From: Candidatus Methanomethylophilaceae archaeon
Lineage (GTDB): Archaea > Thermoplasmatota > Thermoplasmata > Methanomassiliicoccales > Methanomethylophilaceae
Direction: 5' to 3'
Assembly: GCA_050944155.1 (NCBI GenBank)
Contig: JBMNQN010000010.1
Coordinates: 1 to 30,350, forward strand
DNA: 30,350 nucleotides
In this document: positions 5,306-30,350 of the stretch, piece by piece
How positions within the stretch are numbered: position 1 is the first letter of the stretch
Layout: every line of letters begins with the position of its first letter
Notes under the pieces: model-generated
What the model saw: the letters and a program-made list of their open reading frames with translations, nothing else
Database searches by the model: none
What the model was told of the DNA's origin: nothing
Position numbers and translations under genes: made by a program

Positions 5306-5568
5306 GGTTCAAAATATCCCGCCTCTGCGGAGACAGGGCGCTTATGGCGGCTCCGAGAGAAGACGTCGATCTCGATTTGGACAGAGCGGAGAAAATTCTT
5401 TCCGAAAAAGGATACGAAATAAAGCAGAACGACGGGCTGATGCTCGCGTTCACCTTCGAAAATCTGGAAACGACCCTCTACATTCAGGGGAAAGTCATGT
5501 TCTTCCCTCTTAACGACAAGACCCTGTGCACGGAATACGCGACCCGCATTCTGGAATGGGTTCTCTGA
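5302..5568 (+). CDS. Small hypothetical protein (88 aa, MRFKISRLCGD...)
   Basis: ATGA overlap with the upstream kinase stop, protein-like composition, and it fills the gap in the operon. Confidence 0.75.
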   Translation: MRFKISRLCGDRALMAAPREDVDLDLDRAEKILSEKGYEIKQNDGLMLAFTFENLETTLYIQGKVMFFPLNDKTLCTEYATRILEWVL

Positions 5569-5625
5569 TATTTCTGCGGCCTTTTGAGGGCAGATTTAAT
5601 AAACAAACGCCTTATCTCTGCGCCC

Positions 5626-6354
5626 ATGAGCAATATAGCCGTATATGCGGCTGTACTGGTTATTTCAATCGCACTTTCCGTTGCGGCATGGAAAATAAAG
5701 ATGCTTACCGCGGACGGGTCCCTGACCGCGGCAGTCGTCCTGTGTCTAATCGGAATTTTCGGAGACTTTTACTGGCTTGTTATGCTGACGGTTTTCGCGG
5801 TAATCGGCTTTGCGGCAACCAAGATATCTTTTTCCAAAAAGAAATCACAGGGGCTGCAGGAAGGAAAACACGGAGAACGCACATGGAAGAACGTTCTCGG
5901 AGTTTCGTTCGCACCTGCGGTCGTTGCGGTGGCGAACTTCGCCGTGCCGGGATACCACTCCGTGTTCACGATAGCGTTCCTGGGAGCTGTTTCGACTGCG
6001 GCCGCAGATACCGTGGGAAGCGAATTGGGCGTGAAGGACGGAAAAGTATGGCTCATCACCTCTTTCAAACGGGTGAAGCCCGGAACCGACGGAGGCGTTT
6101 CCATGTCGGGAACTCTGCTTTCCTTTGCTGCCGCGTTCGCCATAGCCTTCCTGGGATGGGTTCTGTTCTTCAGAGATCTGGATATTCTGTTCGTTATACC
6201 CGGATTCGCGGGATTCGCGGGCTGCATTATGGACAGCGTTCTGGGCGCCACGCTGGAATCCAGAAAACTTATTTCAAAATACACGAACAACAACATTACG
6301 GAGCTGTTCGGAGCGGTCATAGCGGGTCTGGCGTATTACATAGCGATTTTCTGA
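5626..6354 (+). CDS. DUF92 (TIGR00297/TMEM19-like) integral membrane protein
   Basis: LT.DG...A, G.RTWKNVL, AAADTVGSELG, V.PGTDGGVS..GT, DSVLGATLE, and multiple TM segments. Confidence 0.92.
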   Translation: MSNIAVYAAVLVISIALSVAAWKIKMLTADGSLTAAVVLCLIGIFGDFYWLVMLTVFAVIGFAATKISFSKKKSQGLQEGKHGERTWKNVLGVSFAPAVVAVANFAVPGYHSVFTIAFLGAVSTAAADTVGSELGVKDGKVWLITSFKRVKPGTDGGVSMSGTLLSFAAAFAIAFLGWVLFFRDLDILFVIPGFAGFAGCIMDSVLGATLESRKLISKYTNNNITELFGAVIAGLAYYIAIF

Positions 6355-29019: not shown

Positions 29020-29029
29020 GCTGCTTTAT

Positions 29030-29073
29030 GGCAATTATTTTATTAACTTTTTACTGAATATTTGATAATTGCC
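29030..29073. promoter_or_regulatory. Inverted repeat GGCAATTAT-N26-ATAATTGCC in the divergent nikR-like/terC promoter
   Basis: Perfect 9-bp half-sites at 29030-29038 and 29065-29073. Confidence 0.5.
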
Positions 29074-29121
29074 TGTAAACTTCACTATTAATTTTAAATG
29101 ATTAATCCCTTTTACGGAGGC

Positions 29122-30042
29122 ATGCTTGCAGACGCAGAGCTCATAGAGTGGGTCGGACTGTTCCTCATTCTTACCGTAGCTCTGCTTCTCGACAACTTCG
29201 TAATCAACCGTGGCGCAAAACACATTACGACGAAATCCGCCCTGATTCAGACGGCGGGATGGGTGTCTCTGGCCGTTTTGTTCGGTATATATATCTGGAC
29301 TACCCGCGGAGCGGAATCCGGAATGGAATATTATGCCAGCTACGTTATCGAAGAGGCTCTTAGCGTCGACAACATGTTCGTCTTCATTCTGATCTTCACC
29401 ATGTTTTCGATTCCGGACGATTACCAGCACAAAGCCCTGTTCTACGGCGTGGTAGGAGCGATTGTGTTCCGTCTGCTGTTCATTTTCGCGGGTTCGGAAC
29501 TGCTCATAAGATTCCACGTCGTGATGTACATATTCGGATTCCTGCTGATATTTGCCGCGATAAAAACGATGTTCGGAAAGGAAGGCGGAGGGGGAAACAA
29601 AATCGCCACTTTCCTGTCCAGACATCTGAACGTTTCTCCGGAACTGGACGGGGACAAACTCTTCACCCACAAGGATGGGGTGCGCCTGGTCACTCCGCTT
29701 TTAATCTGTATCATCGTAATCGAGTTCACGGATATCGTGTTCGCGCTGGATTCGATTCCGGCGGTTCTGAGCATCACGACGGATAAATTCATCGTATATT
29801 CGTCGAACATTTTCGCGGTGCTGGGTCTCAGGTCTCTGTACTTCGCGCTGAGAGGATCTCTGACGCACTTAAAGTATCTGAAATACGGACTGGGTCTGAT
29901 TCTTATATTCGTCGGAGTGAAGATGCTGATAGGAGATTATTACGAGTTTACGATTGTGCAGTCCCTGGCGTTTATAGCGATTGCGCTGGTAGTCACGATT
30001 GTTGCGTCGGTGTTCGTTGGGAAAAAATCGACTGAAGCCTAA
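29122..30042 (+). CDS. TerC/Alx family metal homeostasis membrane protein
   Basis: YVIEEALSVDNMFVF, QHKALFYGVVGAIVFR, IEFTDIVFALDSIPAV, YSSNIFAVLGLRSLYF, LKYGL..IL.FVGVKML. TTTTAAA at 29092-29098 supports the start at 29122. Confidence 0.94.
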   Translation: MLADAELIEWVGLFLILTVALLLDNFVINRGAKHITTKSALIQTAGWVSLAVLFGIYIWTTRGAESGMEYYASYVIEEALSVDNMFVFILIFTMFSIPDDYQHKALFYGVVGAIVFRLLFIFAGSELLIRFHVVMYIFGFLLIFAAIKTMFGKEGGGGNKIATFLSRHLNVSPELDGDKLFTHKDGVRLVTPLLICIIVIEFTDIVFALDSIPAVLSITTDKFIVYSSNIFAVLGLRSLYFALRGSLTHLKYLKYGLGLILIFVGVKMLIGDYYEFTIVQSLAFIAIALVVTIVASVFVGKKSTEA

Positions 30043-30192
30043 TTATACGCGTTTTTATTGCGGTATAATTTTATAATCTGAATTTAATAAAACAAAAATT
30101 CCAAATTTATCATAACCTAATCTTTATTCGAAAAAATCTGTAAGTGCTCAAAACAAATTTTTTGATTGGCTTAGAATGTTTGAGAGTATTGA

Positions 30193-30350
30193 ATCTACAG
30201 TAGTAGAAATTTGAATGAGTTTTTGACGAGACAACACTGGAGACGTCTCCACAGATCTACAATAGTAGAAATTTGAATGAGTTTTTGACACCCCCTTGCT
30301 TACTATCAGGGCATCATCTACAATAGTAGAAATTTGAATGAGTTTTTGAC
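30193..30350 (-). CRISPR. CRISPR array with type V-A (Cas12a)-like repeat, truncated at the window end
   Basis: Three 35-nt repeats (30193-30227, 30255-30289, 30316-30350) with unique 27- and 26-nt spacers. The minus-strand consensus GTCAAAAACTCATTCAAATTTCTACTATTGTAGAT ends in the AATTTCTAC-N4-GTAGAT handle. Confidence 0.95.

Follow-up and report, generated by a model that had tools for sequence, protein, structure and literature searches.

Class 2 CRISPR-Cas systems are uncommon in archaea, and bacterial Cas12a arrays are known from Francisella novicida, Acidaminococcus and Lachnospiraceae. Among archaea, Methanoplasma termitum and Methanomethylophilus alvus are named as Cas12a carriers in the accessible part of PMC7145573, and the Cas12a proteins of Candidatus Methanomethylophilus alvus and Candidatus Methanoplasma termitum are employed as nucleases according to the available sections of PMC6892893. 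Arrays of type V-A are classified, in the accessible portion of PMC7757703, by the repeat motif UCUAC[N3-5]GUAGAU. Here we describe one end of a CRISPR array that genuinely belongs to type V-A, found in a member of the Methanomethylophilaceae, and compare it with the Cas12a loci of the same archaeal family. The array occupies the end of the window, i.e. the whole stretch of DNA that was analysed (30,350 nucleotides).

Cas12a above the TIGR04330 cut-off is encoded in nine of the 173 other species genomes of the GTDB family, which belong to five of its 19 genera. The statement of the initial annotation that Cas12a is reported in a few Methanomassiliicoccales is borne out for this family, in which it is rare but present, in agreement with what the accessible part of PMC7145573 reports. 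All nine Cas12a loci make up our family comparison set. Hereby, eight of the nine share the order cas12a (~1225-1300 aa), cas4, cas1, cas2, AT-rich leader and array on one strand; wherever cas1 and cas2 are present (8/8), the array follows cas2 in the same orientation, with about 130 nt between the two in seven loci. Pfam assignments for the locus of genome G060 comprise Cas12a (RuvC_1, REC1, NUC, PI, REC2), Cas4, Cas1 and Cas2, and all nine effector-linked arrays with such repeats in the family adjoin a full TIGR04330 Cas12a. Within the window's own genus, none of the 15 other species carries Cas12a (0/15), while Cas1 is present in 4/15, so that CRISPR-Cas is patchy in this genus. The handle motif forms an array in the window's genome only; elsewhere in the genus it was matched just once, as an isolated copy in one of the 15 other genomes.

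The family loci show some further features. In eight of the nine, a gene of 262-283 aa is located divergently upstream of cas12a:

L016, 5621-6448, minus strand: divergent gene upstream of cas12a
L017, 5714-6550, minus strand: divergent gene upstream of cas12a
L018, 5724-6560, minus strand: divergent gene upstream of cas12a
five more loci: divergent gene in the same position

Its N-terminus matches HFX_2341_N, and one copy shows a weak Csm6-CARF match (Pfam, three of the eight copies scanned). The gene may encode a sensor or regulator of archaeal V-A islands; no homolog of it was found in the window's genome by tblastn. The locus of genome G042 (L021) holds a full-length cas12a (1260 aa) without adjoining cas4, cas1 or cas2, and has solitary repeats in place of an array. 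One in-frame TAG each is present in the cas12a genes of G106 (L008/L019) and G026 (L012/L015/L023), the latter also being split into two matches; the TAG could be a Pyl codon, in a pyrrolysine-using lineage, or mark a broken gene. Degenerate V-A repeats that retain just the handle were located in three genomes, on the strand opposite to cas12a and immediately beyond the 3' terminus of the gene that lies upstream of cas12a:

L017 (G077), 5480-5720, opposite to cas12a: handle-only degenerate V-A repeats
L018 (G060), 5540-5670, opposite to cas12a: handle-only degenerate V-A repeats
L021 (G042), near 5900-5980 and 10920, opposite to cas12a (cas12a on plus): handle-only degenerate V-A repeats

In G077 and G060 a conserved short guide-like stretch follows these copies, and a copy of its first 14 nt, with one to two mismatches, is found at a distance of about 100 nt, immediately behind TTTG. 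This arrangement looks like the CreR/CreA-type V-A regulatory mini-CRISPRs set out in the accessible parts of two preprints (bioRxiv 10.1101/2023.03.10.532045 and 10.1101/2023.03.03.530964).

The window corresponds to the whole of contig C10 in an assembly of 27 contigs, 1.04 Mb and 92.4% completeness. Its genes include topoisomerase VI A and B, class I lysyl-tRNA synthetase, a DUF5591-PUA protein and other housekeeping genes, and McrA and PylS are encoded in the genome above curated cut-offs. Topo VI A/B and class I LysRS in the window together with McrA and PylS in the genome confirm the archaeal host that had been proposed from the letters of the window. This gene content and the family context fit a small pyrrolysine-using methanogen of the Methanomassiliicoccales/Methanomethylophilaceae.

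The last 158 bases of the contig (30193-30350) consist of three copies of a 35-nt repeat and two spacers, preceded by an AT-rich flank:

30043-30192, no strand assigned: AT-rich flank on the trailer side (GC 0.24), separating the TerC stop codon from the array
30193-30227, minus strand: trailer-most (oldest) repeat, 34/35 against the consensus, A to G at the 8th base (plus strand)
30228-30254, minus strand: spacer S1, 27 nt, common to contigs of three other public runs
30255-30289, minus strand: consensus repeat 2, exact copy, the final repeat before leader-like DNA in runs X1, X3 and X8
30290-30315, minus strand: spacer S2, 26 nt, not in the X1, X3 and X8 contigs, which diverge at 30289
30316-30350, minus strand: consensus repeat 3, exact copy, with the contig stopping on its last base

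The repeats start 62 and 61 nt apart, S1 and S2 are mutually unrelated, and the flanking bases differ among the copies, so that the true unit is 35 nt. Allowing up to three mismatches, this unit has three matches in the window and none in each of 100 dinucleotide-preserving shuffles. We therefore find regular direct repeats with unique spacers, three units being in view. Recomputed coordinates and spacing, along with the 0/100 shuffles, reproduce the 35-nt repeat with 26-27-nt spacers of the initial annotation; its minus-strand reading of the repeat is the correct reverse complement, and, as it noted, the window stops precisely where a repeat does, the contig's final base being that of the third repeat. 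Tandem Repeats Finder makes no call at the array, as expected with unique spacers. The variant base of the leftmost repeat falls into the hairpin loop (U to C in the crRNA sense) and leaves the stem unaffected. S1 contains a perfect 14-nt palindrome, and self-folding is possible in the predicted crRNA.

Folding of the minus-strand repeat yields a UCUAC/GUAGA stem of 5 bp, a loop of 4 nt and a single 3' U (-4.8 kcal/mol, z -2.6), and eight of 200 shuffled sequences fold equally well. Its 3' end is the V-A handle UCUAC[N3-5]GUAGAU. Compared to the arrays of the nine cas12a loci of the family, 29-33 of 36-37 positions are identical, whereby the 37-nt comparison strings take in one or two flanking bases. 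This likeness spans the whole repeat and comprises the 5' part (GTC-AAAACTCATT...) as well as the handle. Thus, the stem taken earlier as characteristic of Cas12a crRNAs belongs to a V-A handle that folds, within a repeat resembling cas12a-linked family repeats. Rfam yields no CRISPR family match for the repeat, its sole match (E 0.21) being attributable to chance; because no Rfam family matches, the classification rests on the motif and on the comparison with real loci. With up to three mismatches allowed, the repeat itself was found in none of the 173 other family genomes (0/173). Searched as a 31-base pattern with free loop, it gave no match in metagenome_contigs, genome_contigs or viral_contigs. 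Other contigs with the same repeat were found in the public runs X1, X3, X8 and X15, against zero matches in these three collections.

The crRNA sense is the minus strand, which would correspond to transcription from right to left. The only variant repeat is the leftmost one, on the TerC side, and in the family arrays of G008, G117 and G031 variant repeats are likewise found toward the trailer. Because of the crRNA sense, the family locus layout and the leftmost variant repeat, we place the trailer end at 30193 and the leader beyond 30350. That the window holds the trailer end, with the leader to the right, had been proposed before; the minus-strand crRNA sense, the leftmost variant repeat and the rightward divergence of contigs from other samples all agree with this. 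On the evidence of the sequence, the leader is hence predicted to lie to the right of the window.

In line with the initial annotation, the flank between TerC and the array is more AT-rich than the rest of the window, having a GC content of 0.24 compared to 0.46-0.58 in 500-nt bins. The other intergenic stretches listed (n = 14) show values of 0.43-0.54 in 12 cases and 0.37-0.38 in the remaining two, and the sole other comparably low stretch is 29020-29097 (GC 0.23). In six of six congeners, only 6-30 nt separate TerC from a convergent gene, which encodes 222 aa in five of them and falls within 222-274 aa overall, so that these genomes leave no room for such a flank. No sequence resembling it was found in the family loci, the congeners or the assembly. 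As a leader candidate the flank was ruled out by its position 3' of the sense repeats, i.e. on the trailer side.

We searched the assembly, which is 92.4% complete and whose contig C10 is broken inside the array, for the genes that accompany V-A arrays in the family. Cas12a gave no match with TIGR04330, PF18501 or tblastn with the nine family Cas12a proteins. Likewise, Cas1, Cas4 and Cas6 were absent from the 27 contigs, Cas2 gave only noise (E 0.15), and Cas3 had no match above cut-off, the matches being generic helicases. When the 86 ORFs of the nine family loci were compared with the assembly by tblastn, 66 remained without match, among them all cas12a, cas4, cas1, cas2 and HFX_2341-like genes; the 20 with a match are flanking housekeeping genes. 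The array on C10 is the sole CRISPR-like array of the assembly, and the handle occurs on no other contig.

Linked contigs of this assembly share overlaps of 127 bases, and the array end of C10 has no such partner. This fits a branch of the assembly graph at which the next spacers of different strains differ. Contig C23, suggested as right-hand neighbour by congener synteny, was rejected, as it runs into a diphthine-synthase-like gene and overlaps C8 by 127 bases. In two mapped congeners the order is diphthine-synthase-like gene, 697-aa gene, ~47-61 kb, TerC and 222-aa gene, the genes being located in five. In the present assembly the diphthine-synthase-like gene is the immediate neighbour of the 222-aa gene (C23/C8, 127-base overlap), and a segment of ~50 kb (C19...C24...C26-C10) has two loose ends, one of which is the CRISPR array. 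This segment is either relocated or polymorphic in the sampled population. Relative to the congeners, the array thus marks a rearrangement breakpoint.

The last 651 bases of the window (29700-30350) recur, with half or more of the sampled words, in public DNA runs (20 runs, 10 studies), none of which is on record as RNA; the source sample may be among them. These runs are labelled landfill, anaerobic digester, bioreactor or simply metagenome, and the stretch is nearly unchanged in them; since it recurs in these 20 runs, the organism is widespread in engineered anaerobic habitats. Contigs were compared for four runs of four studies (X1, X3, X8 and X15). Hereby, X1, X3 and X8, from three studies, each hold one contig that is identical to the window up to 30289 and continues with 831 nt (X1), 2911 nt (X3) and 2467 nt (X8) of the same non-window sequence. 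The first 30 bases past 30289 are GC-rich and show no renewed repeat at the distance of a spacer (26-27 nt), and the records of the three runs match no second place of the stretch. The evidence is the loose end at 30289, the lack of cover at 30290-30350 in these runs being no evidence by itself. The public contigs were presumably built with short words (k=31). A 35-nt repeat that is crossed by such a contig implies a single repeat context in the sample, and the strains of X1, X3 and X8 are hence read as having an array of only two repeats and the one spacer S1.

In the crRNA sense, the loose end has ...CCCACGG as its last bases before the repeat. Among the leaders of the eight family loci, five terminate in ...CGG and seven in ...GG, and by eye the spacers of the present array lack such an end. 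The resemblance hints, weakly but specifically, that to the right of repeat 2 the DNA of X1, X3 and X8 may be leader. The 30 bases past 30289 are absent from the assembly, even as 14-mers, and gave no match in metagenome_contigs or genome_contigs. A different picture is obtained for X15, for which 48 records were placed; 36 of the 48 match two places of the stretch, corresponding to many short repeat-bearing pieces. Such pieces are as expected of a long or heterogeneous, still-extending array, and a different organism that shares the repeat could likewise be their source. Over the repeats, the summed depth in X15 amounts to about 29,000-59,000, against 531 on the flank, which is not a copy number. 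Taken together, the variation is polarised to the right-hand side as acquisition at the leader end predicts, and such acquisition needs Cas1-Cas2 in the recent past.

Comparison of the spacers with viral sequences in IMG/VR, a check put forward in the initial annotation, did not reveal a target, exact S1 and S2 giving zero matches each. The whole array produced only noise against phages (E of at least 2) and no match against plasmids. With up to three mismatches, S1 was found in none of 260 other genomes of the order and S2 in none of 90 other family genomes of at least 90% completeness, and a search for self-matches of the spacers with up to six substitutions gave none in the assembly. Across phages, plasmids, IMG/VR (exact), the order and family genomes and the organism's own genome, no protospacer was found for S1 or S2, and hence no PAM could be derived.

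Taking these data together, we consider it probable, from sequence comparison, that the window holds the promoter-distal (trailer) end of a V-A array whose leader and cas genes lie to the right and were lost in assembly or binning. An orphan array, derived from a V-A island that was acquired and whose cas genes were later deleted or never arrived, would instead be a short remnant that is no longer extended and at most transcribed. It would be in line with the lack of any cas gene of any type in the assembly, with the 0/15 congeners carrying cas12a, and with the three runs that show just two repeats and one spacer; moreover, deletions are plausible at a rearrangement breakpoint such as the one where the array is located, and G042, with its cas12a lacking cas4, cas1 and cas2 and its solitary repeats, demonstrates that decayed V-A loci occur in the family. 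Against a remnant of this kind speak two perfect repeats and a third that differs solely in the loop, leader-side spacer differences among strains and repeat-bearing pieces in X15, both of which need a recent adaptation module, and a junction right of repeat 2 that resembles a family leader end. Moreover, an assembly of 27 contigs at 92.4% completeness has gaps, and binned genomes often lack CRISPR-cas islands. We regard the orphan array as rather unlikely but as a serious rival, and a cas operon that is unassembled seems on balance more plausible than one that is lost.

Two further explanations concern the effector and the role of the array. The same crRNA handle could serve a type V effector other than Cas12a proper, since the accessible part of PMC7757703 describes divergent type V effectors, some in operons without a V-A nuclease, whose repeats carry UCUAC[N3-5]GUAGAU. 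The repeat, however, resembles the cas12a-linked repeats of the family over its whole length, 5' part included, and every one of the nine effector-linked arrays of the family stands next to a full TIGR04330 Cas12a, which renders another effector very improbable. Alternatively, the array might be a degenerate mini-CRISPR of the CreR/CreA kind, producing a crRNA-like RNA that guides Cas12a to repress a nearby promoter and not to cut invaders. Two repeats around one spacer in three runs and the one repeat variant are compatible with this, such mini-arrays are described for V-A systems in the parts available of bioRxiv 10.1101/2023.03.10.532045 and 10.1101/2023.03.03.530964, and handle-only mini-arrays stand beside cas12a in G077, G060 and G042. 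The repeats here, however, are full-length and intact (34-35/35), the spacers are of normal length, and a third repeat with a different spacer is present in this assembly. In addition, a search of the assembly with the PAM-proximal 14 nt of each spacer (up to two mismatches) gave nine seed matches each, zero of them with TTTV. Given the intact repeats, the normal spacers and the lack of a TTTV-flanked partial target in the assembly, we rejected the CreA/CreR-like reading, which is extremely improbable.

In the favoured reading, the leader, to the right of the window, would drive transcription on the minus strand toward TerC. The precursor would be cleaved by Cas12a itself, 5' of every hairpin, resulting in crRNAs with a 5' handle of ~19-20 nt (AAUUUCUACUAUUGUAGAU) and a guide of 26-27 nt. 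These crRNAs would direct Cas12a to DNA with a matching protospacer beside a PAM, while Cas4-Cas1-Cas2 would insert new spacers at the leader end. Transcription, processing and interference by this particular array are likewise predicted. Beyond 30350 we would expect a leader of about 130 nt, followed by cas2-cas1-cas4-cas12a on the minus strand. The cas island may have been lost because the assembly graph broke at the diverging spacers of the strains and the island was not binned. Jointly with a leader and cas12a-cas4-cas1-cas2 lost to the right, the array is probably working or was so recently. More tentatively, the array might belong to a strain-variable V-A island newly acquired by a genus otherwise without Cas12a and inserted at the breakpoint of the ~50-kb relocation. 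Such an island would show differing natural states, with a single spacer in three studies (landfill, digester and bioreactor) and an array both long and heterogeneous in a further bioreactor; we regard this as possible, yet somewhat doubtful. In that case, its Cas12a would be an uncatalogued ortholog from a methanogen of ~1.1-1.3 Mb, and the runs would be a record of Cas12a-based adaptation in progress in an archaeal host.

V-A arrays of this archaeal family are already in the literature, and the present repeat is a close variant of those. New here are only the host genus and the hint that strains differ, some having one spacer and others a long array. Otherwise this is an ordinary array end, and it adds nothing new on mechanism unless the missing cas island is recovered. 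A confirmed V-A array at this place widens the known host range by one genus, and it suggests that a further archaeal Cas12a ortholog may exist in an organism encountered repeatedly in metagenomes of landfills, digesters and bioreactors.

Compared to known systems, the array shares with orphan CRISPR arrays that no cas gene is detectable in the available, incomplete assembly; unlike those, its contig breaks within the array, and the strain-level spacer variation argues for recent adaptation. With bacterial Cas12a arrays and the metagenomic V-A families in the accessible part of PMC7757703 it has in common that no need for a tracrRNA is implied, whereas the 5' part of its repeat follows the archaeal family consensus and its host is an archaeon. 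In contrast to the V-A loci of alvus and termitum, the trailer end alone is visible here, without a cas gene, and the genus is otherwise without cas12a. Like those loci, however, it resides in an archaeal methanogen, its ~35-36-nt repeat carries the same 3' handle and a closely related 5' part, and its spacers fall in the range of 26-28 nt, the family loci compared here (not matched to the named strains) being ordered cas12a-cas4-cas1-cas2-leader-array.
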